Positions 6,368-27,788 of a DNA stretch of 64,000 nucleotides are shown here, piece after piece. Both the position numbers and the translations under genes were made by a program. The notes below the pieces were generated by a model. It saw only the letters and a list, made by a program, of their open reading frames with translations. It was not told the DNA's origin and made no database searches. The stretch lies in the NCBI GenBank assembly GCA_002070645.1, contig MWDQ01000150.1, positions 36,261 through 100,260 on the forward strand. The letters are read 5' to 3'. Every line of letters starts with the position of its first letter. Position 1 is the stretch's first letter. The DNA is from a candidate division TA06 bacterium ADurb.Bin131 (GTDB lineage Bacteria; Ratteibacteria; UBA8468; B48-G9; DTJG01).

Positions 6368-7477
<1,110 letters not shown>

Positions 7478-7728: not shown

Positions 7729-8736
7729 CTAAATAATCAGCATTGCATCACCATAAGAATAAAATCTATACCCAGTATCAACTGCAATAGTATAAGCCTT
7801 TTGAATCAATTCAGTACCACCAAATGCACATACCATTGAAAGATGTGTTGAACGAGGCAAATGAAAATTTGTTATCATCTTATTTATATACCTAAACTCG
7901 TATCCAGGTTCAATAAATAAGTCAGTATACCGTTTACAAGCACAAATTTTATTGTTTGCTTTTTCTACACTTTCAATCGCCCTTACAGTACTTGTTCCTA
8001 CAGCGCAAATTTTTTTCCCTGTCCTAATTGCATCATTCAAAACACTGGCTGATTCTTCGGATATTTCAAAAAATTCAGGCAGAATGAGTTTTTTTTCGTC
8101 AAAACCTCTATATATACGCAATGAAGCATAACCAATATGAAGGGTTATAAACGTAATAACAACTCCTTTATTTTCTAATTCTTTAAGGATATTTTTTGTA
8201 AAATGTAATCCAGCAGTGGGCGCAGCAACTGAACCATATTTTTCTGCGTATACTGTCTGATAATCTGTTATATCTTTTTCATCATCGTCTCTCTTTATAT
8301 AAGGTGGAATTGGAACCCTGCCTATACTGAAGACCTTCTCATCATCATCTGTATCAAACTGCAAAATCCAGGAACCAACATCATTTTTTTTAAGAACTGT
8401 ACCCGAGATTTCATCAAATAATATCTGCATCCCTTCTTTAATTTTTCCTCGTATAAGAACCTCCCATATGCTGGGTTGTATTTTCTTTAATAAAAGAATC
8501 TCGATCTTTCCACCTGTTTCTTTTTTTCCGTAAAGCCTTGCTGGAATTACCCTTGTATTGTTTAAAACAAGCACATCTGAATTAGAAAAAAAATTTATGA
8601 TGTTTTTGAATATCGAATGTTCAATTTTTCCTGTCTGACGATTGACTATCATCAATTTTGCTTCTTCCCTTTGTTCAAGAGGTCTTTGAGCAATTCTATC
8701 CTGCGGAAGTTCATATTCAAAGATTTTATTATTCAT
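7729..8736 (-). CDS. queA: S-adenosylmethionine:tRNA ribosyltransferase-isomerase
   Basis: The 335-aa protein has the QueA N-terminus FEYELPQDRIAQRPLEQREEAKLM and lies upstream of tgt. Confidence 0.9.
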   Translation of the reverse strand: MNNKIFEYELPQDRIAQRPLEQREEAKLMIVNRQTGKIEHSIFKNIINFFSNSDVLVLNNTRVIPARLYGKKETGGKIEILLLKKIQPSIWEVLIRGKIKEGMQILFDEISGTVLKKNDVGSWILQFDTDDDEKVFSIGRVPIPPYIKRDDDEKDITDYQTVYAEKYGSVAAPTAGLHFTKNILKELENKGVVITFITLHIGYASLRIYRGFDEKKLILPEFFEISEESASVLNDAIRTGKKICAVGTSTVRAIESVEKANNKICACKRYTDLFIEPGYEFRYINKMITNFHLPRSTHLSMVCAFGGTELIQKAYTIAVDTGYRFYSYGDAMLII

Positions 8737-10400
8737 GGCTTATAAAAAAGCAAGATTTTAGGGTGGGCATAAATCATATCATGAAGGGTCCAGTCACAAT
8801 CAAAATATAGTTGACCAAAATGAGGTTCATTCTCAAAGATTTTTTTAAGCACAAATCCTTTTTTTTGGCAAAAATCTATCTTGTTTTGCATTTCCTTAAC
8901 TCTACTACCATAGGTAAGAAAATATTGAAGTTCTCCTATAATTAGAAAACTCCCGGAAGGTGCTGTCTCAAGATCTTTTTCTGATACTACTGCGTATCTT
9001 AATGGATTCACCGGGGGAACCTCGAATATCCATGGATCCTTTGTAAACACAAGTTTTTTATCCTGTGGAATCTCGTTGCTTATATACTCTGCTGCAAGAA
9101 TCCTTACATCCTTACAGGCCATTACCTTTGAATAAGCAACTGACTTAATTAAAACAGCCACAAGAATTAAGATACACAATGAAGAAGCAAAAATTTTTGC
9201 TCTTTTATTTTCTATCTGGAAAAAATCATTAAAAACAGAGCCTGCGCTTAAACATAAAAAAGGAAGTACCAATAAATAATATCGTGCGTACTTAAATCCT
9301 CCTGCAGTAAAAAGCGGCACAAGACAAAGAATAAGCCCTGTCAGGATTATTCTATCTTCTAATAATCTTCTTCTTGCGAGAAAATATATAGACAGGATAA
9401 ACAAAAACACAAGCAACCATGAACCAACCCAGAATGCCGCGAAAAAATTAATGAAACAGTTTATATACTGATATAAGCCAGAAGCACCAACACCTCTTGA
9501 TCCTGTCTGATATAGAATATCTCTTTTAAACTCATTAAATGCAATTATGCAGTATGGAGTTGTTATTAAAAATCCCACAAGAAACAAAACAAACAATATC
9601 AGCATATTTTTGATAAACCTACCAGGAGATTTTTCATAGGTTCTATAATAGACAAAGGGTAATAGGAATATAAGTATTCCTGCAGGATATTTTGTTCCAG
9701 TTGCAATTCCGAGTGTAAAGGCAGAAAATGCAATGTAAAAAAATTTTCTTCTTTTTACAAACATTACAATAAAAAAAAGGGAAACTATAATCCAGAAAAC
9801 CATTGGAATATCAACAGTCATATAATGGCTGTTTATTGAATATAATGGACAGAACCCAAGGCACGCAGTTGCAAAAGCAGCGCCATACCTTCCGCATAAT
9901 ACCAGTGCGACTTTATAAAATAAAATTAAACCACAAATAGCCATCAACAGCGTAATATATCTTCCTGCAAGATACATTTTTGCCATTTCATCAGGATGCT
10001 TGAAGTAATAAGAAATATCTGGTTCTATCTTTATAAATCCTGGTATTGAAAGAACCTTTAATGTAACTGCAACAAGATATATCTGAGAAGAAGGATACTC
10101 GAAAAAATGAGGATTAAAATCAAACCTTTCAGGAGACATTGTGCTTATACTTTTCAGGATATTTTGTTCATCAGGATGAAAAGAACGGATCGCATTAAAA
10201 ACAGACCTTGGCAATTTCTCTGGTAGATTTTCTTTGGAAATTTCCCAGCTGTGTTTGACATATTCTTGGGAAATATTGGCATCTTGAATATAAAAACTCT
10301 TTGTTTCTTCTGAAGGTAGTCCCCACTTTATACCTGTTGTATATAACAAAGATGCAAAGATAAAAATGCCAATAATTATAAACAAATAGGGCTTGTTCAT
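8733..10400 (-). CDS. polytopic membrane protein, putative GT-C-fold glycosyltransferase (paralog 1 of 3)
   Basis: The 555-aa protein has an N-terminal TM followed by the GIKWGLP motif, at least 9 predicted TMs and a conserved ~100-aa C-terminal soluble domain (EPHFG...HPKILLFYKP) shared with the ORFs at 20340 and 23287. It lacks the loop-1 DE motif of canonical PMT_2. Confidence 0.4.
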   Translation of the reverse strand: MNKPYLFIIIGIFIFASLLYTTGIKWGLPSEETKSFYIQDANISQEYVKHSWEISKENLPEKLPRSVFNAIRSFHPDEQNILKSISTMSPERFDFNPHFFEYPSSQIYLVAVTLKVLSIPGFIKIEPDISYYFKHPDEMAKMYLAGRYITLLMAICGLILFYKVALVLCGRYGAAFATACLGFCPLYSINSHYMTVDIPMVFWIIVSLFFIVMFVKRRKFFYIAFSAFTLGIATGTKYPAGILIFLLPFVYYRTYEKSPGRFIKNMLILFVLFLVGFLITTPYCIIAFNEFKRDILYQTGSRGVGASGLYQYINCFINFFAAFWVGSWLLVFLFILSIYFLARRRLLEDRIILTGLILCLVPLFTAGGFKYARYYLLVLPFLCLSAGSVFNDFFQIENKRAKIFASSLCILILVAVLIKSVAYSKVMACKDVRILAAEYISNEIPQDKKLVFTKDPWIFEVPPVNPLRYAVVSEKDLETAPSGSFLIIGELQYFLTYGSRVKEMQNKIDFCQKKGFVLKKIFENEPHFGQLYFDCDWTLHDMIYAHPKILLFYKP

Positions 10401-11116
10401 TAGTTTTGGAACCTGATTTGTATAAGTTCAACAAAACACTTAAAAGAATCTCTTAAAAACCTTACTGTCGTGGTTGGATCATTTGCCCATATTACACCAA
10501 TTTCTTTTATCCTGTATCCTGATTTTACTGCCCTATAAATAATCTCAACATCAAAAACAAATCCTTTATGCTTAAGTTCAGCAAATAGTTTCTTTGCAAT
10601 AGATCCTCTGAATAATTTGAATCCACATTGAGTATCAGAAAAAGGAAGATGTAGGATTGTGCGCACAAGCATTTGAAAAACCTTTCCTGATAATCTTCTC
10701 GGAAATGGTTGCTTTCTGGTAATCTGTGAATCCATTACTCTTCTTGAGCCAATTACTATGTCATATCCATTGGCAAGATAGGGCATAAATTTCTCTATCT
10801 CAGAGATTGGCGTTGATAAATCAGCATCAGAAAAAAGGATAAACTCTCCCTTTGCAACAAGTACCCCCTGAGAAATGGCTTCTCCCTTTCCCTTATTTTC
10901 TTTATAAGAAACAAGTTTGACAGAATTCAGTTTTTTGGCAATCGATTTAACTTTTGACGAGGTTTCATCACAACTTCCATCATCCACAACAACAATCTCA
11001 AAGATAATATTCTGCTTCTCAAAATATTCATTGATATTGTATAGGGTTGCCTCAATCGTGTTTTCCTCGTTATAAGCCGGAATTACTACACTAAGGTTTA
11101 CAGTATCTTTGTCCAT
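10400..11116 (-). CDS. GT2 glycosyltransferase, polyprenyl-phosphate sugar synthase-like (DPM1/ArnC/GtrB type)
   Basis: Motifs: LSVVIPAYNEE...IVVVDDGSCDET...SDADL. The ~240-aa length is typical of Dpm1/ArnC-like enzymes. Confidence 0.7.
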   Translation of the reverse strand: MDKDTVNLSVVIPAYNEENTIEATLYNINEYFEKQNIIFEIVVVDDGSCDETSSKVKSIAKKLNSVKLVSYKENKGKGEAISQGVLVAKGEFILFSDADLSTPISEIEKFMPYLANGYDIVIGSRRVMDSQITRKQPFPRRLSGKVFQMLVRTILHLPFSDTQCGFKLFRGSIAKKLFAELKHKGFVFDVEIIYRAVKSGYRIKEIGVIWANDPTTTVRFLRDSFKCFVELIQIRFQN

Positions 11117-11814
11117 GATTTTATCAATACATATATGTAAAGTTTCATGTATGGAAATGTCCTTGTTATCCTGAATTTTGATTTCCCTTTTTTTCTTCCA
11201 ACCCAGAATGTTGGCACATCACAAATCCTGTATCCGTATAAACAGAACTTCATTGCAGCTTCCATTGAAATAGCAAACCCATTTTCCTTTAAGCGAATAT
11301 CTTGAAGGATACTTCGCCTGTATGCCTTAAAAGCATTTGAAATATCCCTGGTCGGAAACCTTGCGAGATAATATAAAGAAAGACAGACAAACCTTGAAAA
11401 AAATCCCTGTAGTTTAGGCCCACCTATCTTTCCTGCACCTTTCATATATCGACATCCACATATAAGGTCATATCCTGATTTTGCTTTTTCAATCATCAGA
11501 GGTATTGTTTCTGGATCATCACATCCATCTGCCATTACAGGAAGAACAAATTCTCCACTGGCATTTTCAAACCCTGTTTTCAATGCATTTGCAAATCCTG
11601 CAGGTTTTTGATTATAAACCAGCTTTACCTCTTTATGTATACTGCATAATTTTTTTACAATTAATGAAGTATCATCAGTAGAATGGTCATCAACAACAAT
11701 AATCTCAACAAGATTTATACCCGTATATGGCAGAATATTTTCAATTGTTGAAGCAATAAGTTCTTGTTCATTTCTCGCTGGAATAACAATACTCAAAAAG
11801 GGTTGATCTTTCAT
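11098..11814 (-). CDS. GT2 glycosyltransferase, polyprenyl-phosphate sugar synthase-like
   Basis: Motifs: LSIVIPARNEQ...IIVVDDHSTDDT. The DxD-type catalytic core reads MADGCDD. Confidence 0.65.
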   Translation of the reverse strand: MKDQPFLSIVIPARNEQELIASTIENILPYTGINLVEIIVVDDHSTDDTSLIVKKLCSIHKEVKLVYNQKPAGFANALKTGFENASGEFVLPVMADGCDDPETIPLMIEKAKSGYDLICGCRYMKGAGKIGGPKLQGFFSRFVCLSLYYLARFPTRDISNAFKAYRRSILQDIRLKENGFAISMEAAMKFCLYGYRICDVPTFWVGRKKGKSKFRITRTFPYMKLYIYVLIKSWTKIL

Positions 11815-12938
11815 ACTAATTTTTTCTTCTTAAGTTCTTCCATTACAGAGATAAATCTATCTTCAGCAATCACAGAATCAGACCATTTTAATAGATTTAA
11901 CATCCCCCTTTCAAATGAAAAAGTAGGTTTAAAACCAAGAACCTTCTCTATTTTTCTCGTATCTGCATAGCAATGTCTTACATCTCCCTTTCTAAATCTA
12001 TAAGTCACAAGGGGGTGTATTTTTTTTCCTGAAAGATTAATAAGATTTTTTGCGACATCAAGGATGCTGACAGGTTTTCCTGTTCCAACATTAAAATACT
12101 GTTGGTTTGCCTTTTCATTTTCAAGGGCAAGAATATTTGCCCTTATAACATCATCAACCCATATAAAATCCCTTGTCTGAAGACCATCTTCAAATATAAC
12201 AGGTGGCTTATTATTTTTTATCCTGCTAATAAAAATTGCCGCAACGCCTGTATAAGGATTGCTCAATGATTGACGTGGGCCGTAAACATTAAAAAACCTC
12301 AGAGAAACAACTGGAATCCCATAGAGTTTCCCGATAAGTAAACACATTTCTTCTTGTTCTTTTTTTGTAATTGCGTAGATAGAATTAGAATCAAGTAAAG
12401 ATCCTTCGTCTGTTGGTATTGAATCTGCAATATCCCCGCATAAAGGACATTTTATTTCCCAGTACTCTTTTTCTTTTACTCCTGTGCCTTCAGGAATGTT
12501 TCTCAATGCAGGCTTGAAAATCCCGCACTTTTTACATCTTGCTTTACCCTCGCCGTAACTACTCATTGAAGCAGCAACAATCAATTTCTTAATGTGATGA
12601 CGACTATTAACAAGAATATCAAGAAGATTTGCAGTACCACAAATATTTACATCAACATATTTTGAAATCTGATACTGAGACTGCCCTACCCCAACTGCAG
12701 ATGCAAAATGAAATATAAAATCAGCATTGCATACTACTTCCTTTAGTTTTGAATAATCCCTTACATCTCCTTTAACAAAATCAACATTCCTGTTAAGATA
12801 TTCTGGAATATTTCCCTCAGGATGAACCTGTTGATCAAGATTATCAAATACAACAACACCATAGCCATTTTCAAGAAGCGCATCACAGAGATGACTCCCA
12901 ATAAATCCGGCTCCACCAGTGATAAGAACCTTTTTCAT
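11811..12938 (-). CDS. NAD-dependent sugar-nucleotide epimerase/dehydratase (extended SDR) with an inserted Cys4 zinc ribbon
   Basis: It has the Rossmann motif ITGGAGFIGSH, and the SDR fold resumes after the insert. A ~50-aa insert carries CKKCG...x24...CPLCG. Confidence 0.6.
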   Translation of the reverse strand: MKKVLITGGAGFIGSHLCDALLENGYGVVVFDNLDQQVHPEGNIPEYLNRNVDFVKGDVRDYSKLKEVVCNADFIFHFASAVGVGQSQYQISKYVDVNICGTANLLDILVNSRHHIKKLIVAASMSSYGEGKARCKKCGIFKPALRNIPEGTGVKEKEYWEIKCPLCGDIADSIPTDEGSLLDSNSIYAITKKEQEEMCLLIGKLYGIPVVSLRFFNVYGPRQSLSNPYTGVAAIFISRIKNNKPPVIFEDGLQTRDFIWVDDVIRANILALENEKANQQYFNVGTGKPVSILDVAKNLINLSGKKIHPLVTYRFRKGDVRHCYADTRKIEKVLGFKPTFSFERGMLNLLKWSDSVIAEDRFISVMEELKKKKLV

Positions 12939-13873
12939 TTTTTAACCTTAATGTAATAATCCAATGTCTTTTTTAGCCCTTCTTCAAGTTTTATAGTTGG
13001 AAACCAACCAAGAATTTTTTTTGCCAGTGTAATGTCGGGTTTTCTCTGTTTCGGGTCATCAGGAAGACCATCGAGAAACTTAATAGAAATATCAGCCCCA
13101 GAAAGTTTTTTCATTTTTTCAGCAAGTTCAATAATTGTAAATTCTTCGGGATTTCCAAGATTTACAGGTAGATGATAATCTGTTTCTATCAAAAGCAAAA
13201 AAGCAGAAATCAAATCATCCACATAACAAAAACTTCTTGTTTGTTTCCCATCGCCATATATTGTAAGTGGCTTGCTTGAAAGAATCTGTGAAATAAAATT
13301 TGGAATAACCCTGCCATCATTCAGACGCATCCGCGGCCCATATGTATTAAAAATCCTCGGAAGGTATGTTTTTAATCCATATTGTCTATGATAAGCCATA
13401 ACAAGCGCTTCTCCGTATCTTTTCCCTTCATCATAGACTGATCTTGGACCAACAGGGTTTACATTTCCCCAGTAGGTTTCTTTTTGAGGATGTACAAGGG
13501 GATCTCCATAAACCTCTGATGTTGATGTAAAAAGAAATCGAGCCCCTGCTTTTTTCGCAAGAGATAAACATCTATCTGTCCCGATTGAATTAACCCTGAG
13601 AGTTTCAAGTGGAAATTTCATATAGTCAGGAGGAGATGCTGGACTTGCAAGATGAAAGATTATATCTGGTTTTATAGAAATATTCTCAATATTAAATGAA
13701 ATGATATCTTCCTGTATAAACTTAAACCTAATATTTCCCGAAAGGTGTTTTACATTCTCAAAAGAACCTGTTATCAGATTATCAATGCAATATACATAAT
13801 CTCCGTTTTTCAATAATCTTTCACACAGATGACTACCAAGAAACCCTGCACCACCTGTAACAATAGCATTCAT
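12935..13873 (-). CDS. uxs: UDP-glucuronate decarboxylase (UDP-xylose synthase)
   Basis: The 312-aa protein has VTGGAGFLGSHL and the UXS-typical strings YGDPLVHPQKETYWGNVNPVGPRSVYDEGKR and FNTYGPRMRLNDGRVIPNFI. Confidence 0.8.
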   Translation of the reverse strand: MNAIVTGGAGFLGSHLCERLLKNGDYVYCIDNLITGSFENVKHLSGNIRFKFIQEDIISFNIENISIKPDIIFHLASPASPPDYMKFPLETLRVNSIGTDRCLSLAKKAGARFLFTSTSEVYGDPLVHPQKETYWGNVNPVGPRSVYDEGKRYGEALVMAYHRQYGLKTYLPRIFNTYGPRMRLNDGRVIPNFISQILSSKPLTIYGDGKQTRSFCYVDDLISAFLLLIETDYHLPVNLGNPEEFTIIELAEKMKKLSGADISIKFLDGLPDDPKQRKPDITLAKKILGWFPTIKLEEGLKKTLDYYIKVKK

Positions 13874-15192
13874 ACCTTTCTCCCGATTCCTGAATAGATA
13901 AATCCAAGTTTTTTTAAATGCTTCACATCAAGAAAATTTCTACAATCAATAATAAATGGGCTTTTCATCAATTTCTTTATTCTCTCAAAATTCAGTTCAG
14001 CAAACTGGGACCATTCCGTTAACAACATTAATAAATCACATGAATCAACTGCATCATAAGGATTGTTATAAACATCAACATCAGGTACCTCTATAACAAG
14101 ATTTTTAAGAGCCATCGGATCATAACATCTAACCTTTGCTCCCCTTGATATAAGTTTTTTTATTATCTCAACCGCCGGACTTTCTCTTAAGTCGTCTGTA
14201 TCTGGCTTAAACGCTGCTCCGAAAGCGCAAATTTTTTTGCCTGCAAGTCTTCCACCAAGAAGAGAAACAGCTTTTTTTATTGCTATTTCTCTCTGTTGTT
14301 TATTTATTTTTTCTACCTCTCTTAAAAGATTAAAAGAAATGCCAAGTTTTTTTGCAAGATAAATAAAAGCCCTGACATCTTTTGGAAAGCATGATCCACC
14401 ATAACCGATACCTGCATTAAGAAATGCCCTTCCAATTCTTTTGTCGTAACCCATTCCATCTGCCACATTATCAACATCTGCGTCACATCTCTCACATATT
14501 CGTGCAATAATATTAATATAGGAGATTTTCAAGGCAAGAAAAGAATTTGAGGCATGTTTTATTAATTCTGCACTTTTTATGTCAGTAAATAGCATAGGTG
14601 CATCTAATGGTTTATAAATCTCCTCAAATATTTTCTTTGCCCTCTGGTTTTCCACGCCAACAACAATCCTGTCGGGCTTCATAAAATCATTTACTGCACT
14701 TCCCTCTCTTAAAAATTCCGGATTTGCCGCCACATCAAAATCAAGGCCAACTGGCAGCATAATTTGCAGTGTTTTTTTAACCCATTCTCCTGTAAAAACA
14801 GGAACTGTGCTTTTCTCTACAATAATCTTGTAAATGCCAGATGGGTTCTTCAAACAGGTAAGAGCATCTGCTATCTCTGCTGTAACCTTCTCAATTGCCG
14901 ATAAATCAGCCCTACCACAATCTGATGAAGGAGTTCCGACTGCAATGAAAATAATTTCTGATTCGAGGGTTAACCTTTTAATAGAAGAGGTGAAAACAAG
15001 TTTTCCTTTCTCTGTTTCGCTTCGAACAAGATCATCAAGATTCGGTTCATAGAAAGGAATCTTATTTTTTTTCAGACACCTTATTTTCGATATATCATTG
15101 TCAGCACATAAAACATAATGGCCCATATTTGCAAAACACGCTGCTGTAACAAGGCCAACATGCCCAGCACCGATTATACCAATTTTTCTCAT
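13870..15192 (-). CDS. ugd: UDP-glucose 6-dehydrogenase
   Basis: The 440-aa protein has the NAD-binding N-terminus IGIIGAGHVGLVTAACFA, the catalytic Cys region GGSCFPKD and a UDP-binding C-terminal domain. Confidence 0.85.
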   Translation of the reverse strand: MRKIGIIGAGHVGLVTAACFANMGHYVLCADNDISKIRCLKKNKIPFYEPNLDDLVRSETEKGKLVFTSSIKRLTLESEIIFIAVGTPSSDCGRADLSAIEKVTAEIADALTCLKNPSGIYKIIVEKSTVPVFTGEWVKKTLQIMLPVGLDFDVAANPEFLREGSAVNDFMKPDRIVVGVENQRAKKIFEEIYKPLDAPMLFTDIKSAELIKHASNSFLALKISYINIIARICERCDADVDNVADGMGYDKRIGRAFLNAGIGYGGSCFPKDVRAFIYLAKKLGISFNLLREVEKINKQQREIAIKKAVSLLGGRLAGKKICAFGAAFKPDTDDLRESPAVEIIKKLISRGAKVRCYDPMALKNLVIEVPDVDVYNNPYDAVDSCDLLMLLTEWSQFAELNFERIKKLMKSPFIIDCRNFLDVKHLKKLGFIYSGIGRKV

Positions 15193-16223: not shown

Positions 16224-16317
16224 TTCATTATTTTATCATTACTGCTAAAAAAAATCAGGCGAAACCTGCTGGTAAGGAATTAAAACCAGATAATATGAAA
16301 TTCTTAAGTTAATAAGT

Positions 16318-17172: not shown

Positions 17173-17801
17173 CTGATTTTTTTCCCCTCTCTTATTTTAC
17201 GAGGAGTATATCTTATTGGAACCTCGTATATCCTGATTTTCTTTTTTGCAATCTTCGCTGTTACTTCAGGACAAAACTCAAATCCTTTACAGTTAAGTTT
17301 GATACCTTTTAAGATATCACTCTTAAACATCTTATAACATGTGGGTTCATCAGTGATTGATGTTCCATAAAGAAGGTTTGTAAAAAAGGAAAGAATCCTT
17401 CCCCCAACATAAAATGAAAAAGAAGATGTTTGATTCTTCCCAAGTATTCTCGAGCCATAAACAACATCAGCCCTGCCCTGCTCTATTGGCTCTATCATCC
17501 TGAGATAATCCATTGGTTCATATTCAAGGTCTGCGTCCTGTATCACAACAACATCACCTGTAATCTCGTTTATTGCCCTTCGAATGGCATATCCTTTTCC
17601 AATATTCTTCGGTTGAAAAATAACCTTAATCAATGGGAATTTTTGCTGGGAAATCTTTTTGAGTATTTGACTTGTTCCATCTGTACTGCCATCATCAACA
17701 ATAATAATTTCTTTATTAATAGGAACTGTAAGAAGTTTTTGAATAATGACCTCAATGGTATTTTTTTCATTATAAACAGGAACGATCACAGAAAGTTTCA
17801 T
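17121..17801 (-). CDS. GT2 glycosyltransferase (short Dpm1-like form); paralog of the ORF at 25005
   Basis: Motifs: LSVIVPVYNEKNTI...IIIVDDGSTDGT...QDADLE. Confidence 0.7.
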   Translation of the reverse strand: MKLSVIVPVYNEKNTIEVIIQKLLTVPINKEIIIVDDGSTDGTSQILKKISQQKFPLIKVIFQPKNIGKGYAIRRAINEITGDVVVIQDADLEYEPMDYLRMIEPIEQGRADVVYGSRILGKNQTSSFSFYVGGRILSFFTNLLYGTSITDEPTCYKMFKSDILKGIKLNCKGFEFCPEVTAKIAKKKIRIYEVPIRYTPRKIREGKKIRWKDGVIAIWTLIRYRF

Positions 17802-18988: not shown

Positions 18989-19638
18989 ATTTTTAACCTG
19001 AATGTAAAAAGTGAATTATGTCCATATATACCAATCCTCGGAAGTGAATAAGAATCAAAACTACCCTTCCAGTTTGTAATAACCGCACCAGCGTACCCAG
19101 CATTTTTAACTGTTTGCCTGATTTTTTCGTTTTGACGACCATAAGGGTAGCAAAAAAAATCAATCCTCTGTCCAATGTTTTTTTCAATATATTTCTTTGA
19201 TTCAAATATTTCACTCCACACCTGTTTTCTTGGAAGTTTGGTAAGATCTGGATGTGTTAATGTATGAGAACCAAAGATAACGCCTGATTTTAACATCTCC
19301 TGAATCTCTTTCCATTTAAGGTATCTATCCTTTTCTTTGTCTTTATATCTTTCATGAATTTTCTCTGTTCCAATACTATGGGCAATAAGAAAAATTATTG
19401 GTTTTATCCCATATTTTTTCATAATTGGAAAAGCAATGAAAAAGTTATCTGCAAATCCATCATCAAATGTAACACAAAAAGTTCTTCTATGCGCATTGTT
19501 TTTGATATACTCATATAAAGAAACTGGCTCGTACTTTTCTTTCAATAAAAATCTTATCTGAGATTCAAACATTTCAGGAGAAACGCTTAATGCATCATCA
19601 GGATACCATTTGTTTATTCTATGATATGCAAGAATCAT
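18961..19638 (-). CDS. polysaccharide deacetylase (CE4, NodB homology; ArnD-like)
   Basis: It has the CE4 motifs TFDDG, HSIGTE...H and SHTLTHPDL. Confidence 0.7.
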   Translation of the reverse strand: MILAYHRINKWYPDDALSVSPEMFESQIRFLLKEKYEPVSLYEYIKNNAHRRTFCVTFDDGFADNFFIAFPIMKKYGIKPIIFLIAHSIGTEKIHERYKDKEKDRYLKWKEIQEMLKSGVIFGSHTLTHPDLTKLPRKQVWSEIFESKKYIEKNIGQRIDFFCYPYGRQNEKIRQTVKNAGYAGAVITNWKGSFDSYSLPRIGIYGHNSLFTFRLKIWLKKLRIK

Positions 19639-20353
19639 TTTTGAAGTTTATCCTCTTAAACCTGTATTGTATAATAAGAAATATCATTTTCATACCGAGA
19701 ACAAGTGATTTCCTGAAACTACCTGTTACAGAAGATTTTCCTACCCTCGGTTTATAGTTTACGGGAATCTCGATAAATCTAACATTTGCCTTTGCAACAA
19801 GAAGGGTTAATTCAGGTCCAAAATGTTGTGTTCCTACAGAAAAATGCGGCTTGAGTTTTTCATACAAAGGTCTTTTTATCAATCTCATTGTACAACCAAC
19901 ATCAGTAAGTGTTGTTGTATTGTATAAAAACTCGAGAAGTTTGGCTACAGCCCAATTTCCCCATTTTAAGAAAGCACCCATATTTGCATCTTTCCATATT
20001 AATTCTCTTGTTGTCCTTGTTCCAATAACATAATCAAAATCATCAGAATAGGCGAGCAATTTTATAACATCCCTTCCTGAAAATGTACCATCTGGTTCAG
20101 ATATAATAAAAAGTTCTCCTTTTGCCTCTTCTAATCCCTTCCATATCGCATATCCATAGCCCTGTTTTTTTTCATAGACAAGTTTTGCATTTGTTTTCTT
20201 TACCTCTTCGTCTGTCCCCTTTGCCGCATTATTATTAACAACAATAATCTCGTCAACAAATCCTGATGCAAAAAAATCTTCTATTGCATCTCTGATAGAA
20301 TCTTTCTCGTTATAGGTTGGGAAAATCACACTTACTTTTTTATTCTTCCACAT
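19619..20353 (-). CDS. GT2 glycosyltransferase, Dpm1/Ppm1-like polyprenyl-phosphate sugar synthase
   Basis: Motifs: VSVIFPTYNEKDSI...EIIVVNNN...EPDG (acidic catalytic motif). Confidence 0.65.
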   Translation of the reverse strand: MWKNKKVSVIFPTYNEKDSIRDAIEDFFASGFVDEIIVVNNNAAKGTDEEVKKTNAKLVYEKKQGYGYAIWKGLEEAKGELFIISEPDGTFSGRDVIKLLAYSDDFDYVIGTRTTRELIWKDANMGAFLKWGNWAVAKLLEFLYNTTTLTDVGCTMRLIKRPLYEKLKPHFSVGTQHFGPELTLLVAKANVRFIEIPVNYKPRVGKSSVTGSFRKSLVLGMKMIFLIIQYRFKRINFKNDSCIS

Positions 20354-22079
20354 ATTTCCTCTTATAAATTATAATATAAGGGTTTGCAACCCAGACATCC
20401 TTCGCAGAGAATTTTGTTCTATTAAAGGTTATTCCAAAAAATGAAGCAGGTTTCTGAAATTTCTTCAGTGTATAATAATGCAAAAAAAAGTTTCCAAGGG
20501 TTTCTTCTGTCTGCCATAATGTTTCATATTCGCTGATAATAAAATAATCTGGCTTCGTTGTTTCCAGTTTTTCTTTATCCCATAAAACAGGGATAATATC
20601 ATATCTGTAAAATTGAAAGCTCGGAGTTCTATAAGGAGCCGGCATCTGAAGCATTCCTATCTTTGATTTTTCAGGGATATTCATATTTATCCATCTTCCT
20701 GCCTCTTCACGAATATTCTCCTGCGCAAAAACTCTCGTGTTTGCTCCAGAATAGAAAAATGTTAATATAAGCACAAAAAGTGTTAACATTCCTCCGATAA
20801 TCCTGATTCTTTTTATTACATGAATTAGAAATATCCCTGCAAACATAGCCATAAATGGCATCAGAAATATTCCTCTGCGCACATACCAGGGAGAAAAACA
20901 CGAAAAAATCACCAGTGGTACTATTATTGAGGTAATCAGAAAAATAGAATTACTGTTCCTTTCCTTCATGCATAATAAAATATATCCTGCAATAAAACTC
21001 AATAAAAATGGCCATCCAGCACCGGATTTTAAGGAAGCAAAAACAAAATAGAAAAAATCAGGAGAAAACTTAAAATCTCCTCCTTCAAATTTTAATACCT
21101 TTAGAAAGGTTTCCTTATCAAGAATAAGGAATATATGAATTATGCCAACCACTACAATAAACATCACAATTCCGAAAGCACTGTTTTTCAACATTCTATA
21201 CAAATCTTCCCTTTTCCCATTATACGCTGATATCAATCCTGCAGTAATCATAAACATAATACACACACCATACAAGGAAACAACAGACATAGCAATAGAT
21301 GCAAATATAGCAGAGATAAGATAATATTTTAACTGTTTATTGGAAATTATCTTAAGTCCATATAAAAAAGACAAAAGCACAAAAGGCAATGCAAAGCCGT
21401 AGTAATACCCAAAGTGATTCCACATATTCAATGCAGGACATATACCAAACAGAAAAGAGGAAACAAGTCCAACCTCTGGTCCCCAGAGGTTATTGCTGAT
21501 TGACCAGACAAGATAAATGCTAAAAAGGAACGCAAGAATTAAAAGAATCCTTATGGAAAGGTAAACCTTTTTTAGTTCTCCTGGATGTTCAAGATAAAAA
21601 GTAGAATCCCCCAATTTTATTATTTGGAGAAAATTGCACATACCAAGCCATAATCCTGTAGCATAAACATAAAAACACCCGGGTATTAAAACCTTTGGGC
21701 TGAATTTTTTCTCTTTGGGATTGATATTTGAAAGAGCCGCCAGGGTTATATGTTCATCAGGATAATATGTTCTTAAAAGATATGTGCGCATGGCATTTAT
21801 CTTACCCACTGTTAATGGAACCTTAAAACCACTGAATTTAATAATTTTATCCTCATCATAATCTTTTCGGTACTCATCCCCAGGAGATTTAATCATCTGT
21901 CTTATTTCTTGTCTTGTTTCTGCCATTATAGGAACAAGAGCATTTAGAACTTTTTCATTTCCAAAAATAAGATTAATTATATTCTGTCCAGGAAGTCCCC
22001 ATCCAATTCCCAAAAGATTAATACATAAGGAAATTAACATAATAAAAAACAGTAAAATATAAATTCTTTTCTGTTTCAT
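20340..22079 (-). CDS. polytopic membrane protein, putative GT-C-fold glycosyltransferase (paralog 2 of 3)
   Basis: The 579-aa protein has an N-terminal TM plus GIGWGLP, many TMs and a C-terminal soluble domain (QKPASFFG...ANPYIIIYKRK) homologous to those of the ORFs at 8733 and 23287. Confidence 0.4.
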   Translation of the reverse strand: MKQKRIYILLFFIMLISLCINLLGIGWGLPGQNIINLIFGNEKVLNALVPIMAETRQEIRQMIKSPGDEYRKDYDEDKIIKFSGFKVPLTVGKINAMRTYLLRTYYPDEHITLAALSNINPKEKKFSPKVLIPGCFYVYATGLWLGMCNFLQIIKLGDSTFYLEHPGELKKVYLSIRILLILAFLFSIYLVWSISNNLWGPEVGLVSSFLFGICPALNMWNHFGYYYGFALPFVLLSFLYGLKIISNKQLKYYLISAIFASIAMSVVSLYGVCIMFMITAGLISAYNGKREDLYRMLKNSAFGIVMFIVVVGIIHIFLILDKETFLKVLKFEGGDFKFSPDFFYFVFASLKSGAGWPFLLSFIAGYILLCMKERNSNSIFLITSIIVPLVIFSCFSPWYVRRGIFLMPFMAMFAGIFLIHVIKRIRIIGGMLTLFVLILTFFYSGANTRVFAQENIREEAGRWINMNIPEKSKIGMLQMPAPYRTPSFQFYRYDIIPVLWDKEKLETTKPDYFIISEYETLWQTEETLGNFFLHYYTLKKFQKPASFFGITFNRTKFSAKDVWVANPYIIIYKRKYVEE

Positions 22080-23335
22080 TTGTTCTTTTCAGGAATAAAA
22101 CATCTTATACCAAATACTGCCATTATAATCAAAAAAGGCATCAATGGCTCACGATACCTTATAACTGTCTTGAAAAACAGAATTACGGGAATGGATAGAA
22201 AAATAATCAACAAATATATTAAAAGGTATTCCCTCCATTTTCTCAAAGAAAAAATAAACCCAAGTCCTGCAAGGATAAAAATAGGAAGATTTGTAAGGAT
22301 GGCTACTTTTACATGATAGGATTTATAATTCTCTCCAGGACCCGAAAAGGTGTGAGGTGATATCCTCCAAAATCTAACAAACCTGTCTGCTACAAGACGA
22401 AAATACACATGTGGATTGTTTTTAATAAAATTAAATGCCGCCCTGTAAAAGTATCTATCTGTTTCAACTTCTGACAATCCTTTGATTGCTTTTATAACAG
22501 GTTCATCATATCTACCAGTTGGATCCCAGTATCCAGAATCCTGATAAAGGGATTTCTCGTTGTTTGCAATATAGCAAACAATCCCACCTTCTGTTGATGT
22601 TAGCAAAATTGTCTTATGAATATGGTAGTTTCTTAAAATCCATGGTGTCATTACAATAAAACACGATAAAAGCATATAAACTGTATTTTTAAGAGCAAAC
22701 TTCACATTACATATCACGGTCAGCCATATAAAGATTGCCGGTATAAAAACAAGAAAAAGAGATCTTGTTAAAACTCCAAAACCAAGAACAAAACCAGAAA
22801 TAAAAAATAGAAGTGAATCCTGTTTTTTCTCTGCAAGAAAACATAGATACACTGTAAGTAATGCAAAGAATATTTCAAGAGTAACAGGTACAAGATAACC
22901 AGTCCAGAAAATCCCAGGTGGATAAAAAACATAAAGAAGAGACGTAAGAATCGCTGATTTATTATCTAGAAGAATTCTGCCAAGGGAAAAAAGCAATAAA
23001 CATGTAATAGAACTAACTATTGCAAGACAAATCTTTGCTGCAAGAAAACTATGCCCAAACAATTTATACACGCCTGCAAGAAATAATGGGAATACTGGAG
23101 ACCTCCAGGAATAATAAACAGGACCATCAGAAAAATAGGGATTATTTACCCAGTATCCTTGGCCTGTTGCTAATTTCCATCCCAGTTCATCCCACCAGTC
23201 CCCCCAGACATCAACTGTATTGTCGAGAGTAGAAATAAAGCCAATCCTTAAAATTAATGCAAGAAAAAATATCCCAACAAGAAGGATTATAAGTTTTTTC
23301 TTTTCCATATTAGTATTGTTGGATTTGGATGACAC
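22076..23335 (-). CDS. GT-C glycosyltransferase, PMT_2 / ArnT-like
   Basis: The 419-aa protein has a loop-1 DE motif (WWDELGW), the PMT_2 core (RSPVFPLFLAGVYKLFG...VFYPPGIFWTGYLVPVTLE) and more than 10 TMs. Confidence 0.65.
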   Translation of the reverse strand: MSSKSNNTNMEKKKLIILLVGIFFLALILRIGFISTLDNTVDVWGDWWDELGWKLATGQGYWVNNPYFSDGPVYYSWRSPVFPLFLAGVYKLFGHSFLAAKICLAIVSSITCLLLFSLGRILLDNKSAILTSLLYVFYPPGIFWTGYLVPVTLEIFFALLTVYLCFLAEKKQDSLLFFISGFVLGFGVLTRSLFLVFIPAIFIWLTVICNVKFALKNTVYMLLSCFIVMTPWILRNYHIHKTILLTSTEGGIVCYIANNEKSLYQDSGYWDPTGRYDEPVIKAIKGLSEVETDRYFYRAAFNFIKNNPHVYFRLVADRFVRFWRISPHTFSGPGENYKSYHVKVAILTNLPIFILAGLGFIFSLRKWREYLLIYLLIIFLSIPVILFFKTVIRYREPLMPFLIIMAVFGIRCFIPEKNK

Positions 23336-25008
23336 CAGTCATAAGGAATAGATTCAGGATGACTGAATACCAGATTAAAAAAATGTGGTTCACTCTTAAA
23401 CTCCTTGATGATTTTATAATCAGATAGAAGTTTTTTTATGTTTTCAAAAGACCCTCCTCTAACCCATTGATACTCACTTACAACAAAATATTCTGAATAC
23501 TTGATTGTTTCTTTTGATGCTCCGATAAGTATATTATATTTCAAAAATTGAAATGGCGGTGTTCTCCACGGAGAGGGTGCTTCGAGAAGTCCAATTTTTG
23601 ATCCATAAGGAATATTATTATTAATCCATATACCCGCAGATGTTCTAACATTTTCCTGAGAAAATAAGTTCACATACGATAAGGAAAAAATAAATGTATA
23701 TAATATTCCTATAGAAATCAATATTTTTGGAAATTGTTTTTTTATCTTCGTCATACCCAGAACAATAACAACAAAAATATAAGGGTATAATATAAAAGCA
23801 TAGTGAACCCATCTACCTGTTGAAAACCCAAAATAAAGAAATCCTGGAAGTATACTCAAAAAAATCAGTATAAATCTTTTATCCTGCCTTATTAAAAAAC
23901 AAACAACAAGAAAAACAATGGAAATAAGATATGTTGCTGTACCAAGTCCATACCTCAGGGATGTCGTCATAAAATACTTGAGATTAGCAAAATTAGAGGA
24001 ACCCTTCCAGTATGACTGTATATAAAACATTTCATTGATGAATTCTTTGAAAGAAATTAAAACATAAGGGTTTGTCAAAAAGTAGGAAAACAAAAAACAA
24101 ACAAGACATATCAGTATATTTTTGAATAAACTCTTAAAATCAGTAGACACAAGAAATATCATAAAAATGAAAGTAATAAAAACATATCCATAAGAAAGGA
24201 TGCTGCCCATTGAAATACCTGAAAATAAACAACCAGCAATAAGCCATTTTCTTTTCTTCTCATCCATAAATCTAAAAGCACAGTAGAGAGCAAGAATAAC
24301 CCATAACATTCCATAGCAGTAAGGTTTAAGATAATGAGACCACATAACAAAAACAGGAGATATCGCGAACAACATTGACACAAGAAAAGAGGCACTATCA
24401 TCCTTCAAAATATAAGAAGACAGAAAATAAAAACATATCACTGAAAAAATAAAGAAAATCCCACCGAAGATTCTTAAAAGCGTATAAAGACGACCAATTT
24501 TATCAGGATTTGTAAAATAAAAACTAATGTCACTGTGCAATTCAGCAATTTTAAGAGCAGAACAAATCTTCAAAAAAATTCCAGCAGGATAAAGATACGC
24601 TCCTCCATACTCGAAAAAATGCGGGTTGAAATCAAACCTCGAGGGATTCATCTTGCTTAAACTAACAAGAACAGCCTGTTCATCTGCGCCATAGGATCTT
24701 ATCAAATAGCTTCTCATTGAATTTATAATTTCTCTTGAAACAAGATGTTTTTTTCCATTAATATTAATCTCTACCTTTTCTGCAGGATTATAACTGCCTG
24801 AATATGGTGCACCATAAAATTCTTGCATCTCACGTATTTCTTCATGAGCATCCCTCATTAATTCTGAAAGATTTTGAACTTCTGTTTCTCCATTAAACAC
24901 AGAAGAAATACGGCCTTTATCAGGAACACCCCAGTTTATTCCCTTAAAGTGAAAAAAACCTGTTATTAAAATAAGCAACAGCAAATAAAATATTTTTTTA
25001 ACACTCAT
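23287..25008 (-). CDS. polytopic membrane protein, putative GT-C-fold glycosyltransferase (paralog 3 of 3)
   Basis: The 573-aa protein has GINWGVP after the first TM, the string NPSRFDFNPHFFEYGG (almost identical to that in the ORF at 8733) and the C-terminal domain SEPHFFN...HPNPTILIWKRK. Confidence 0.4.
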   Translation of the reverse strand: MSVKKIFYLLLLILITGFFHFKGINWGVPDKGRISSVFNGETEVQNLSELMRDAHEEIREMQEFYGAPYSGSYNPAEKVEININGKKHLVSREIINSMRSYLIRSYGADEQAVLVSLSKMNPSRFDFNPHFFEYGGAYLYPAGIFLKICSALKIAELHSDISFYFTNPDKIGRLYTLLRIFGGIFFIFSVICFYFLSSYILKDDSASFLVSMLFAISPVFVMWSHYLKPYCYGMLWVILALYCAFRFMDEKKRKWLIAGCLFSGISMGSILSYGYVFITFIFMIFLVSTDFKSLFKNILICLVCFLFSYFLTNPYVLISFKEFINEMFYIQSYWKGSSNFANLKYFMTTSLRYGLGTATYLISIVFLVVCFLIRQDKRFILIFLSILPGFLYFGFSTGRWVHYAFILYPYIFVVIVLGMTKIKKQFPKILISIGILYTFIFSLSYVNLFSQENVRTSAGIWINNNIPYGSKIGLLEAPSPWRTPPFQFLKYNILIGASKETIKYSEYFVVSEYQWVRGGSFENIKKLLSDYKIIKEFKSEPHFFNLVFSHPESIPYDWCHPNPTILIWKRKNL

Positions 25009-25688
25009 TTTATAATTCTATATTTTAAGATTGAAAATATTGCCTTGAAACCATCCTTCCAACCTATTTTCTTCCCTTTTTTTCTCGGGCTATAGGAGAT
25101 TGGAATTTCTTTGATTTTATAACCTTGTTTCAAAATTTTACATGTTATCTCTGGTTCTATCTCAAACCTTTCTGAAGTGAGATTTAAGGACTGTAGAAGT
25201 TTTCTCGGACATAACTTATAGCAGGTTTCCATATCAGAAAGTTTTGCATTAAAAACAAGGTTTGTAAAAGATGTAAGAAATTTATTCGCAAGTATAGATA
25301 ATAATGGTAAGGAAGTATTTGTTTTACCCAGAAATCTTGAGCCATAAACCACCTGACAATTTTCTGTTTTAATTGCATTTATCAGTTTCAAATAATCATT
25401 CGGATTGAGTTCTAAATCAGCATCCTGTATAATAACAAAATCATTTTTTGCCTCTTTCAGTCCACACCGGATTGCATACCCTTTACCCCTATTTTTCTCG
25501 AGAAATATAACCTTAAAATGATTTTTTTTATTTCTGTGTATGTTTTCAAGTAATTGTCTTGTCCCATCTGTTGAACCATCATCAATAACAATAATTTCTT
25601 TTTCAACAGGGACTTTTTCTACATCTAAAAGAACCTGCTCTATTGTATGTCTTTCATTATAAACAGGTATTAGCACTGAAATTTTCAT
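25005..25688 (-). CDS. GT2 glycosyltransferase (short Dpm1-like form); first gene of the long minus-strand operon
   Basis: Motifs: ISVLIPVYNERHTI...IIVIDDGSTDGT...QDADLE. It is a close paralog of the ORF at 17121. Confidence 0.7.
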   Translation of the reverse strand: MKISVLIPVYNERHTIEQVLLDVEKVPVEKEIIVIDDGSTDGTRQLLENIHRNKKNHFKVIFLEKNRGKGYAIRCGLKEAKNDFVIIQDADLELNPNDYLKLINAIKTENCQVVYGSRFLGKTNTSLPLLSILANKFLTSFTNLVFNAKLSDMETCYKLCPRKLLQSLNLTSERFEIEPEITCKILKQGYKIKEIPISYSPRKKGKKIGWKDGFKAIFSILKYRIIK

Positions 25689-27768: not shown

Positions 27769-27788
27769 AAAATAGGATTCAGAAATTT

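Follow-up and report, generated by a model that had tools for sequence, protein, structure and literature searches.

What does a bacterium build when the genes for five short sugar transferases of the GT2 family and five membrane transferases of the GT-C type are packed into a single run? This question is raised by a locus of the candidate division TA06 bacterium ADurb.Bin131 (Ratteibacteria; UBA8468; B48-G9; DTJG01; assembly GCA_002070645.1). The window analyzed here is a stretch of 64,000 nucleotides (nt) of contig MWDQ01000150.1, positions 36,261 to 100,260 of the forward strand, and all positions below are counted within it. According to the list of open reading frames (ORFs) of the window, 8733-25688 is filled by 16 consecutive minus-strand ORFs, which encode the five short GT2s, the five GT-Cs, a CE4-family deacetylase, a methyltransferase, Ugd, a UDP-xylose synthase (UXS) and two more epimerase-like enzymes of the short-chain dehydrogenase/reductase (SDR) type. 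We propose that the cluster is probably a conserved core-genome system for envelope glycosylation, composed of two modules, in which polyprenyl-phosphate-sugar synthases are combined with extracytoplasmic transfer by GT-Cs. No description of this cluster was found in the literature, and the literature on Ratteibacteria, in its accessible parts, does not address glycosylation.

Organization of the gene run

An earlier note on this DNA had listed the 16 ORFs in their order on the minus strand, and each of them was found where the note had placed it. The run does contain these 16 genes, but it does not end at 8733 as had been claimed; the next gene, queA, overlaps the last of them by 4 nt, which makes 17. 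The junctions had been put at overlaps of 4-50 nt with a single exception. The overlaps actually range from 1 to 52 nt (1 nt at 10400), while the exception was confirmed: junction distances showed only one intergenic gap, 94 nt long, at 16224..16317 on the minus strand. This gap is the boundary between the two modules. Module A (25688 to 16318) carries, in the order of transcription, GT2a, big1, PMT2a, big2, GT2b, CE4, PMT2b, GT2c and the methyltransferase gene, and module B (16223 to 8733) carries SDR1 (a C2-epimerase-like SDR), Ugd, Uxs, SDR-Zn (a 4-epimerase-like SDR), GT2d, GT2e and big3.

The gap contains a weak 5-bp hairpin followed by a T8 tract at 16268-16256, whose fold was not more stable than that of shuffled sequence (z -0.64). 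Similarly, a scan for promoters and terminators gave site numbers that did not exceed those in shuffles. Since neither scan nor folding did better than the shuffles, we make no claim for an internal terminator or promoter in the run. A search of the whole window against Rfam returned zero RNA families at threshold.

The GT2 proteins resemble polyprenyl-phosphate sugar synthases

The five GT2 genes lie on the minus strand at 25005..25688 (GT2a, 227 aa, the first gene of module A), 19619..20353 (GT2b, 244 aa), 17121..17801 (GT2c, 226 aa), 11098..11814 (GT2d, 238 aa) and 10400..11116 (GT2e, 238 aa). All five products matched PF00535 with E values from 7e-18 to 5e-37 (3e-35, 7e-18, 4.9e-37, 1.5e-29 and 1.9e-30, respectively). 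They align with one another end to end at pairwise identities of 26-49%, GT2a and GT2c being the 49% pair, and have in common PxYNE, the second Asp of DxD, G-x-R and a later Asp. The DxD metal-binding motif reads DAD or DxD in GT2a, GT2c and GT2e, ADGCDD in GT2d and EPD in GT2b; D36 D37 and D89-A-D91 of GT2a were invariant among 15 orthologues.

Sequence searches of the PDB were made with GT2b, GT2c, GT2d and GT2e. As the first match, over approximately 200 residues, each gave the dolichyl-phosphate-mannose synthase (DPMS) of P. furiosus, 5mlz, followed by ArnC or GtrB. The E values were 6e-8 for DPMS and 2e-6 for ArnC with GT2b, 2.9e-22 and 1e-16 with GT2c, and 8.4e-24 (residues 7-232) and 1.6e-11 with GT2d, while GT2e gave 1.8e-19 for DPMS, 8e-18 for GtrB and 9e-13 for ArnC. 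ArnC of E. coli aligned with all five GT2s at 24-27% identity over 181-227 aa (E 1.5e-13 to 8e-23; BLASTP/phmmer). The NCBIfam models that span the whole GT2s are AglJ, the haloarchaeal dolichyl-phosphate (Dol-P)-hexose transferase, ArnC, PpgS and PgfS. For GT2a, the best full-length matches were AglJ, Dol-P-hexose transferase, ArnC and PpgS, all under their cutoffs, and PpgS was matched by all five GT2s at 1.7e-9 to 3.5e-18, likewise under cutoff. We then used an AlphaFold2 (AF2) model of GT2c, built from a shallow alignment of the five window paralogues, with a predicted local distance difference test (pLDDT) score of 82. With this model, the top 25 Foldseek matches were all ArnC, DPMS or GtrB, at template-modeling scores of 0.63-0.80, and other GT2s came later, at 0.57-0.70. 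In the model, the protein ends one helix past the catalytic domain.

By sequence and fold, therefore, the GT2s are members of the polyprenyl-phosphate sugar synthase class with putative substrates, and their earlier description as Dpm1/ArnC-like agrees with DPMS, ArnC and GtrB being the best sequence and fold matches. The earlier note had also raised the question of whether they might be processive polymerases. We rejected a processive synthase of the CesA, NodC, PgaC or HAS type, because no hydrophobic segment exceeded the threshold in any of the five GT2s, leaving them without a transmembrane (TM) helix, and the QxxRW motif was not found in any of them. PgaC, NodC and other models of polymerising GT2s matched only the N-terminal ~100 residues, which form the nucleotide-binding half.

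A conventional cytoplasmic route would make the GT2s Leloir enzymes that extend a repeat unit on undecaprenyl diphosphate, with polymerase- or ligase-like membrane proteins. The great breadth of the GT2 family and a Wzy_C-like gene ~12 kb away would suit this route. However, an initiating phosphoglycosyltransferase, Wzx, Wzy and an ABC exporter are all missing from the Pfam matches of the run, the fold of the membrane proteins is GT-C and not Wzy, and the GT2s are nearest to polyprenyl-monophosphate synthases, so that we regard the conventional route as highly improbable.

GT2b departs from the other synthases in its motifs: in the alignment, EPD replaces DxD, and NN replaces the DD nucleotide-binding motif. 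It is nevertheless the most conserved protein of the cluster, with orthologue identities of 63-91% (mean 83%) compared to 50-65% for its neighbors. This conservation together with the odd motifs suggests an unusual donor or an extra constraint on the protein.

The membrane proteins are of the ArnT/PMT type

The five membrane proteins are likewise encoded on the minus strand, by big1 (23287..25008, 573 aa), PMT2a (22076..23335, 419 aa), big2 (20340..22079, 579 aa), PMT2b (17798..18988, 396 aa) and big3 (8733..10400, 555 aa), the last glycosylation gene of the run. PMT2a starts with GTG, and its true start may be an ATG 27 nt downstream. All five exceeded the gathering score of 26.1 for PMT_2 (PF13231), with 29.3, 55.7, 29.9, 74.3 and 40.5 bits in the order of the genes; the pair of 396-419 aa scored 56-74 bits and the trio of 555-579 aa 29-40 bits. 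The corresponding E values were 8.6e-15 for PMT2a, 1.7e-20 for PMT2b and 4.3e-10 for big3. PMT2b also weakly matched STT3 and PMT, and big3 matched PMT at 3.9e-5. The three large proteins are 22-30% identical to one another (big1 and big2 30%, big1 and big3 27%), in agreement with the earlier view that they form a paralogous family, and PMT2a and PMT2b share 29%.

An Asp-Glu pair in the first loop had been reported for the two small proteins only. It is indeed present in these, as invariant D..DE and DDE motifs directly after TM1 (D46, D49 and E50 among 17 orthologues of PMT2a; D38 D39 E40 among 14 of PMT2b), but it is not limited to them. An alignment of the large family (38 sequences, including all three window paralogues) had only eight invariant columns, two of which were D109-E110 in the numbering of the 573-aa protein; the pair lies in YPDEH from residue 106 of big2 and in HPDEQ from residue 75 of big3. 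As shown by an AF2 model of a large GT-C (pLDDT 94.7, predicted template-modeling score 0.94), D109-E110 follows TM1 (residues 3-21) and an insertion of ~85 residues and precedes the next membrane helix, and a C-terminal alpha/beta domain of ~120 residues extends beyond the membrane core. The proteins have what defines the GT-C fold, a core of multiple TM helices and an extracytoplasmic loop after TM1. Against PDB sequences, the profile of the large family matched ArnT (5ezm) at 1.5e-4 and Pmt1 at 0.019, and TMEM260 weakly. Further fold matches included AftB, AftA, AftD, EmbA and PimE, and PMT, ArnT and ALG12 are not told apart by the structural scores. From these sequence and model data, all five membrane proteins are ArnT/PMT-type GT-Cs with a catalytic-type acidic loop, which would act as transferases with the loop facing the periplasm. 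The suspicion that the large ones might lack the GT-C fold or the catalytic loop was dispelled by the PMT_2 matches, the model and the invariant Asp-Glu.

The same features could fit protein O-glycosylation, in which the GT-Cs would act like PMT or TMEM260 on secreted proteins, S-layer proteins or lipoproteins, using polyprenyl-phosphate donors. PMT_2 and PMT are both matched in Pfam, the profile weakly matches Pmt1 and TMEM260, and the Asp-Glu motif in loop 1 is a hallmark of PMTs. Nevertheless, Pfam detected no MIR, TPR or other protein-binding lumenal domain in the five GT-Cs, and the lack of separation between PMT, ArnT and ALG12 in the structural scores also argues against a specific assignment; we consider it unlikely that proteins are the acceptors in this way.

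An exhaustive profile search found 2,636 representative clusters of the large GT-C family at E <= 1e-30. This overturned the notion of a tiny, Ratteibacteria-specific family, which a word-index search with 48 matches had given. A distant member (profile E 4.7e-102) was observed at 8001-9749 of locus L034, in a different sugar-modification cluster, together with genes for a 230-aa GT2, several methyltransferases, a DegT aminotransferase and three B12-binding/radical-SAM enzymes. Large GT-Cs are therefore paired with short GT2s in other glycan clusters, too.

Sugar supply, deacetylase and methyltransferase

All four sugar-nucleotide enzymes are encoded by module B on the minus strand; in Pfam, three of them (SDR1, Uxs and SDR-Zn) fall into the SDR epimerase/dehydratase family. 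SDR1 (15189..16223), the first gene of the module, encodes an NDP-sugar C2-epimerase-like protein that resembles CDP-tyvelose-2-epimerase (PDB 9rl0 at 1.1e-91 and 1orr at 1.7e-86). Ugd (13870..15192), a UDP-glucose 6-dehydrogenase, has all three UDPG_MGDP_dh domains, scored 439.7 bits against TIGR03026, whose cutoff is 189.8, and matched TuaD at 2.7e-146 and AglM at 2e-103. Uxs (12935..13873, 312 aa), a UDP-glucuronate decarboxylase, matched human UXS1 (4gll/2b69) over its full length at 3.5e-108, whereas the next class followed at 3e-48 and ArnA's C-terminal domain only at ~1e-27. Judged on these homologies, Uxs is a genuine UDP-xylose synthase and not ArnA-like. With Ugd and Uxs both genuine, the dedicated supply of UDP-xylose that had been claimed for the cluster is borne out. 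SDR-Zn (11811..12938, 375 aa) is a GalE-like SDR of the 4-epimerase type, whose best match was GalE of T. maritima (4zrm, 5.7e-46), with other UDP-sugar 4-epimerases next. It carries an insertion of ~40 aa with CKKC...CPLC (residues 135 and 164), which is zinc-ribbon-like and splits the Pfam Epimerase match in two. The similar lengths of its orthologues in loci L027-L029 (370-375 aa) suggest that these carry the insertion too.

Two further enzymes belong to module A, again on the minus strand. The CE4 deacetylase (18961..19638, 225 aa; PF01522 at 9e-30) retains D59 D60 and the His-x3-His pair H125/H129 as invariant residues. No signal peptide, TM helix or hydrophobic segment was found in the protein, and it is therefore predicted to be cytoplasmic. 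In the relatives, its gene always stands directly before PMT2b, and GT2b > CE4 > PMT2b > GT2c forms an invariant CE4-centered block. The class I S-adenosylmethionine (SAM)-dependent methyltransferase (16318..17172; Methyltransf_23 and Methyltransf_11 at ~1e-22), the last gene of module A, keeps its place after GT2c and has an N-terminal, zinc-ribbon-like CxxC...CxxC arrangement with CPLC from residue 19 and CKRC from residue 40.

This set of enzymes brings to mind the decoration of lipid A or the core of lipopolysaccharide (LPS) by systems of the Arn, Lgm/Flm or Rgt type, which would place an amino sugar, a uronic acid and a pentose on lipid A phosphates or Kdo and so tune the charge of the outer membrane. 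Such decoration would be a narrower form of our proposal rather than an alternative to it, and we hold it to be a possibility with clearly less than an even chance. ArnT is the top solved-structure match of the large-family profile, the adjacency of GT2, CE4 and PMT_2 genes mirrors that of ArnC-ArnD-ArnT (PMC4402001) and LgmA/B/C (PMC4993483), and Ugd opens the Arn pathway (PMC4402001). RgtA and RgtB put galacturonic acid (GalA) on Kdo (PMC4402001), and BacA and a Wzy_C/O-antigen-ligase-like gene are located nearby. However, among the 17 proteins there is no homologue of the ArnB aminotransferase, the ArnA formyltransferase or ArnE/F, no ArnD likeness is detectable in the CE4, the decarboxylase is a genuine UXS instead of an ArnA-like enzyme, and five or more GT-Cs are many for lipid A decoration alone.

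Conservation in related genomes

We scanned species-representative genomes with a large GT-C profile made from 19 closer sequences. The same gene order was found in 22 loci from ~20 species-level Ratteibacteria-type genomes, at protein identities of 37-91%, so the arrangement is not due to chance; the synteny in related metagenome-assembled genomes (MAGs) that the earlier note had asked to have checked is thereby confirmed. Homologues of big1 are labelled as Ratteibacteria or Omnitrophica MAGs. The conserved core reads GT2a > big1 > PMT2a > variable slot > GT2b > CE4 > PMT2b > GT2c > methyltransferase > SDR1 > Ugd > Uxs, where the slot holds big2, a 230-aa methyltransferase or nothing, depending on the locus. 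Three loci (L014, L021 and L023) have the rearranged order big1 > CE4 > PMT2b > GT2 > PMT2a. The genes GT2a and big1 overlap by 4 nt in the window, and their adjacency is kept in most loci.

Module B is conserved as well, in the order SDR1 > Ugd > Uxs > SDR-Zn > GT2d > GT2e > big3 > queA > tgt, in three further loci (L027-L029). In L029, the module occurs by itself behind unrelated genes, with no module A upstream, indicating that the cluster consists of two modules and that the sole gap in the window is their junction. The idea of strict co-expression as one operon is not supported, in that the only gap is the module boundary and module B exists alone.

Nor is the proposed one-to-one matching of synthases and transferases supported by the comparison, and in the Rgt system one synthase serves several GT-Cs. 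The ratio of 5:5 holds in the window only, where adjacency itself groups three GT2s with four GT-Cs in module A and two with one in module B. The complete relatives have five GT2s and four GT-Cs (L005+L027) or four GT2s, a 124-aa remnant and five GT-Cs (L026+L028). Additional genes were observed between the methyltransferase gene and SDR1, where L021 (17078-20004) encodes a 482-aa GT-C-like protein with no Pfam match and a 506-aa protein with a weak PMT_2 match, and L003 (17619-19169) encodes an extra 516-aa GT-C-like protein (PMT_2 at 3.9e-9). The number of GT-Cs per cluster thus varies from ~4 to 7.

That GT2 counts do not follow GT-C counts in the relatives also bears on a pathway of the Agl type, in which one or two GT2s would prime polyprenyl phosphate, the others would extend the lipid-linked glycan in the cytoplasm, and an oligosaccharyltransferase-like GT-C would transfer it en bloc after flipping. 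In Haloferax, AglG, AglI and AglE extend the glycan after AglJ, and AglM (a Ugd) and AglP (a methyltransferase) take part. Several parallels exist: AglJ is the best NCBIfam match for four of the five GT2s, although far under its cutoff; GT2e weakly matches AglG, the glucosyl-dolichyl-phosphate glucuronosyltransferase (1.6e-4); Ugd is close to AglM, as given above; the cluster includes a methyltransferase; and GT2d and GT2e adjoin a single GT-C. Nevertheless, the five GT2s are like the class that primes lipid phosphate across their whole catalytic domain, and none of the five ArnT/PMT-type GT-Cs is STT3/AglB-like by sequence, the weak STT3 match of PMT2b (2e-4) being the only one. An en-bloc route would moreover need one transferase and not four to seven. 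We accordingly assign a low probability to the Agl-type pathway.

Two further observations concern the relatives. Between GT2b and CE4, loci L013 (15469-16484) and L024 (4772-5771) carry an insert for a SatD-family protein (PF16264 at 1.1e-25) and for a ~110-aa hydrophobic protein that probably resides in the membrane and has no Pfam match; the latter is the only unassigned membrane protein within any version of the cluster. Two titles among the records that bear the cluster, 'Vermiphilus sp.' and 'uncultured Lentisphaera sp.' (L005, DYKA01000001.1; L023/L024, CAYRRM01), probably reflect mis-binning or mislabelled MAG taxonomy.

Proposed mechanism

The envelope-glycosylation system that we favor could work as follows. 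Module B would make UDP-glucuronate (UDP-GlcA) and UDP-xylose (UDP-Xyl), as the homologies of its enzymes indicate, and SDR1 and SDR-Zn would probably make C2 and C4 epimers of these or related sugars. The five small TM-less GT2s would then act on the cytoplasmic side of the membrane, each loading polyprenyl phosphate with one sugar taken from a nucleotide sugar. Its position in the run and the lack of a signal peptide suggest that the cytoplasmic CE4 takes the N-acyl group off one lipid-linked amino sugar, as ArnD, NaxD and LgmC do. The methyltransferase would methylate a sugar. Afterward, the polyprenyl-phosphate sugars would be flipped by a protein encoded outside the run, and the five GT-Cs would use the Asp-Glu site of loop 1 to pass them to one or more extracytoplasmic acceptors. 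Synthases and transferases need not pair one to one in this scheme, as several GT-Cs may share one donor. Our first guess for the acceptor would be lipid A/LPS core or another envelope glycan, and our second a secreted protein or lipoprotein. It is possible that the cluster is a multi-step assembly line for one complex glycoconjugate.

Several points weigh against this scheme. The 17-gene run, to which the search was limited, encodes no recognisable flippase (GtrA, SMR, ArnE/F, MATE or Wzx) and has no free coding space, and the sequences do not allow the sugars or the acceptor to be assigned. Among the GT2s and GT-Cs, none attains the curated cutoff of any NCBIfam equivalog, GT2b has non-canonical motifs, and the predicted structures cover one large GT-C and one GT2 (GT2c). 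TM helices, which are present in the ArnC, GtrB and archaeal DPMS of known structure, are missing from all five GT2s. Their absence rules out the ArnC/GtrB subtype but not the polyprenyl-phosphate synthase class, which includes TM-less members such as human DPM1, the catalytic domain of mycobacterial Ppm1, and PpgS. As for the CE4, no significant pairwise match to E. coli ArnD and no ArnD match in NCBIfam were obtained, the two sharing the CE4 superfamily only remotely. Three more distant CE4 homologues (38-40% identity) are located in Wzy_C/GT4 clusters and not beside GT2 or PMT_2 genes. For this reason we rejected GT2-CE4-PMT_2 as an inherited module, and the parallel with Lgm, Nax and ArnD is a functional inference only.

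The lack of a dedicated flippase gene in the run leads to the suggestion that some GT-C paralogues are flippases for polyprenyl-phosphate sugars, or scaffolds, instead of transferases, as was proposed for the GT-C-like archaeal Agl23. Weak matches to TIGR03663/Agl23 were obtained with big1 (3.6e-4) and PMT2a (3.1e-5), purified Agl23 moves lipid-linked oligosaccharide across liposome membranes (PMC11182771), and the overlap and conserved adjacency of GT2a and big1 would suit such a role. However, the TIGR03663 scores are 20-23 bits compared to a cutoff of 126, and the invariant catalytic-type Asp-Glu in all three GT-C subfamilies argues for catalysis. We therefore judge a non-catalytic role of this kind to be quite unlikely.

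A bolder form of the glycosylation scheme would be a self-contained extracytoplasmic line that builds a phylum-specific glycan stepwise from four or five polyprenyl-phosphate monosaccharides. These would include donors new to bacteria (polyprenyl-phosphate-xylose or a C2/C4 epimer) and a deacetylated hexosamine, and the TM-less synthases would be docked on translationally coupled GT-Cs that also flip the donors. We think this improbable; if true, it would be the first self-contained assembly line outside Corynebacteriales and the endoplasmic reticulum (ER).

Flanking genes

The cluster has housekeeping genes on its flanks (queA, tgt, larC-like, valS, hflX, pyrD, metG, pyrH, frr, cmk and pnp). 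Downstream, queA (7729..8736, minus strand; PF02547 at 8e-115), which serves tRNA queuosine synthesis, is probably co-transcribed with big3 because of the 4-nt overlap. Next on the same strand comes tgt (6368-7471), separated from queA by 257 nt, the first true gap downstream. Three distant relatives, L027, L028 and L029, keep the order big3 > queA > tgt. The queuosine gene pair thus appears to share transcription with an envelope glycosylation module, and a functional link to the glycosylation genes is not evident.

On the other side of the cluster, a plus-strand gene at 35623..36414 encodes a BacA/UppP undecaprenyl-diphosphate phosphatase (PF02673 at 1e-67). In L001 and L002, BacA is directly divergent to GT2a, whereas in the window a ~10-kb block lies between them, which therefore looks like an insertion or rearrangement. 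The block (25843-35395) encodes a 641-aa AXE1-like esterase, a DUF362 protein with 4Fe-4S, an L-PSP protein, a PSCyt2/PSD1 and DUF1501 pair as is typical of genomes of the Planctomycetes type, and a 730-aa protein with a weak, below-cutoff match to the PPC domain. Near BacA, 38055-39848 on the plus strand encodes a 597-aa Wzy_C protein (O-antigen ligase/polymerase-like) with C-terminal TPR repeats, and L001 has a protein of this type next to BacA as well. A possible function is the ligation of a lipid-linked glycan, which might bear on the question of the acceptor.

Significance

Extracytoplasmic glycosylation by polyprenyl-monophosphate chemistry is usually a side decoration with one sugar, as in the Arn, Gtr and Lgm systems. 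To our knowledge, this chemistry yields whole envelope polymers in just two settings, the eukaryotic ER and mycobacteria with their relatives. Five synthases together with four to seven GT-Cs and their own supply of UDP-GlcA, UDP-Xyl and epimerases, found phylum-wide, suggest a third lineage that relies heavily on polyprenyl-phosphate-sugar chemistry. The cluster offers small, soluble and easily expressed synthases for work on donor specificity, including a possible polyprenyl-phosphate-pentose, and a large uncharacterised GT-C subfamily with a long insertion ahead of the catalytic loop. Furthermore, it lends itself naturally to the question of how lipid-linked monosaccharides get across the membrane with no known flippase encoded nearby. 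Its value is limited by the uncultivated organism and the unassigned acceptor.

Comparison with known systems

The earlier note had not recognised the architecture from characterised systems. This view is not supported, as its logic is that of published systems: the combination of GT2, flippase and GT-C is established for three-component systems (PMC11127046, PMC8035078), and the logic is also followed by Arn (PMC4402001). Lgm, Rgt, the assembly of the mycobacterial cell wall and archaeal Agl are further instances of the concept. Each part is of a familiar type, but so many of them are not known to be combined in any described system; what sets the cluster apart is its high copy number, its TM-less synthases and its lack of a flippase.

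The Arn pathway employs Ugd, ArnC, ArnD and ArnT and places 4-amino-4-deoxy-L-arabinose (L-Ara4N) on lipid A (PMC4402001). The cluster resembles it in the entry through Ugd, an SDR of the UDP-GlcA decarboxylase family, ArnC-like GT2s, a cytoplasmic CE4 and ArnT-type GT-Cs. In contrast, the cluster has no aminotransferase, formyltransferase domain or ArnE/F flippase, its decarboxylase is a true UXS, its GT2s lack the TM helices of ArnC, its CE4 is not detectably ArnD-like, and it has five GT2s and five GT-Cs where Arn has one of each. When the 17 proteins were compared with ArnB, ArnA, ArnE and ArnF of E. coli K-12 by BLASTP and phmmer, only the SDR part of ArnA was matched, through Uxs at 1e-32. 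The cluster was thus rejected as an arn operon, because the E. coli Arn proteins compared have no counterparts in it apart from ArnC and the SDR part of ArnA.

Glucosamine (GlcN) modification of lipid A requires lgmA, lgmB and lgmC (PMC4993483), and FlmK is an ArnT orthologue that adds galactosamine (GalN) (PMC4402001). LgmABC of Bordetella and FlmF2/NaxD/FlmK of Francisella share with the cluster a GT2, a CE4 deacetylase and an ArnT-like GT-C encoded together, a likeness of domain composition and adjacency only. LgmA, LgmC, FlmF2 and NaxD have enzymatic roles in the hexosamine modification of lipid A.

In the Rgt system, a single synthase, RgtE, serves the four GT-Cs RgtA/B/C/D, the genes are dispersed, and UDP-GalA comes from Ugd and a 4-epimerase. 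Set beside the cluster by description, Rgt is alike in that several GT-Cs draw on a polyprenyl-phosphate-uronic acid donor, in its case for the modification of LPS core and lipid A, and the Ugd and 4-epimerase-like SDR of the cluster are compatible with a supply of UDP-GalA. It differs in its one synthase, four transferases and scattered genes from the compact cluster. Of the four, Rhizobium RgtA and RgtB act on Kdo as described above.

The GtrA/B/C, CsbB/GtcA/YfhO and GT136 pentofuranose systems likewise encode a synthase next to a GT-C, in some cases together with auxiliary epimerases (PMC11127046, PMC8035078). GtrB-type enzymes have 1-2 TM helices (PMC11127046). The cluster differs from these three-component systems in lacking the third component, the flippase, and a membrane anchor on its synthases, and in being fivefold with its own nucleotide-sugar supply.

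The haloarchaeal Agl pathway (AglJ, AglG/I/E, AglM, AglP, AglS and Agl23) is similar in that the GT2s match AglJ, Ugd is AglM-like, and a methyltransferase and GT-C-like proteins are present. Nevertheless, the scores are far under cutoffs, no AglB/STT3 orthologue is encoded, and the cluster is bacterial.

Mycobacteria assemble arabinogalactan, lipoarabinomannan (LAM) and phosphatidylinositol mannosides (PIM) with Ppm1, PpgS and decaprenyl-phosphate-arabinose (DPA) on the donor side and Emb, Aft, Mpt, PimE and Rv3779 on the transfer side. Common to both are many GT-Cs, several polyprenyl-phosphate-monosaccharide donors and envelope glycans built outside the cytoplasm. The cluster differs in belonging to another phylum, presumably diderm, in its compact genes, in GT-Cs that are ArnT/PMT-like and not Emb/Aft-like, and in having no pentofuranose route based on phosphoribosyl pyrophosphate (PRPP). 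Taking what is known of these systems together with the fold matches, the nearest system-level analogues of the cluster would be the mycobacterial assembly of arabinogalactan and LAM and the ALG and PMT reactions of the ER lumen.

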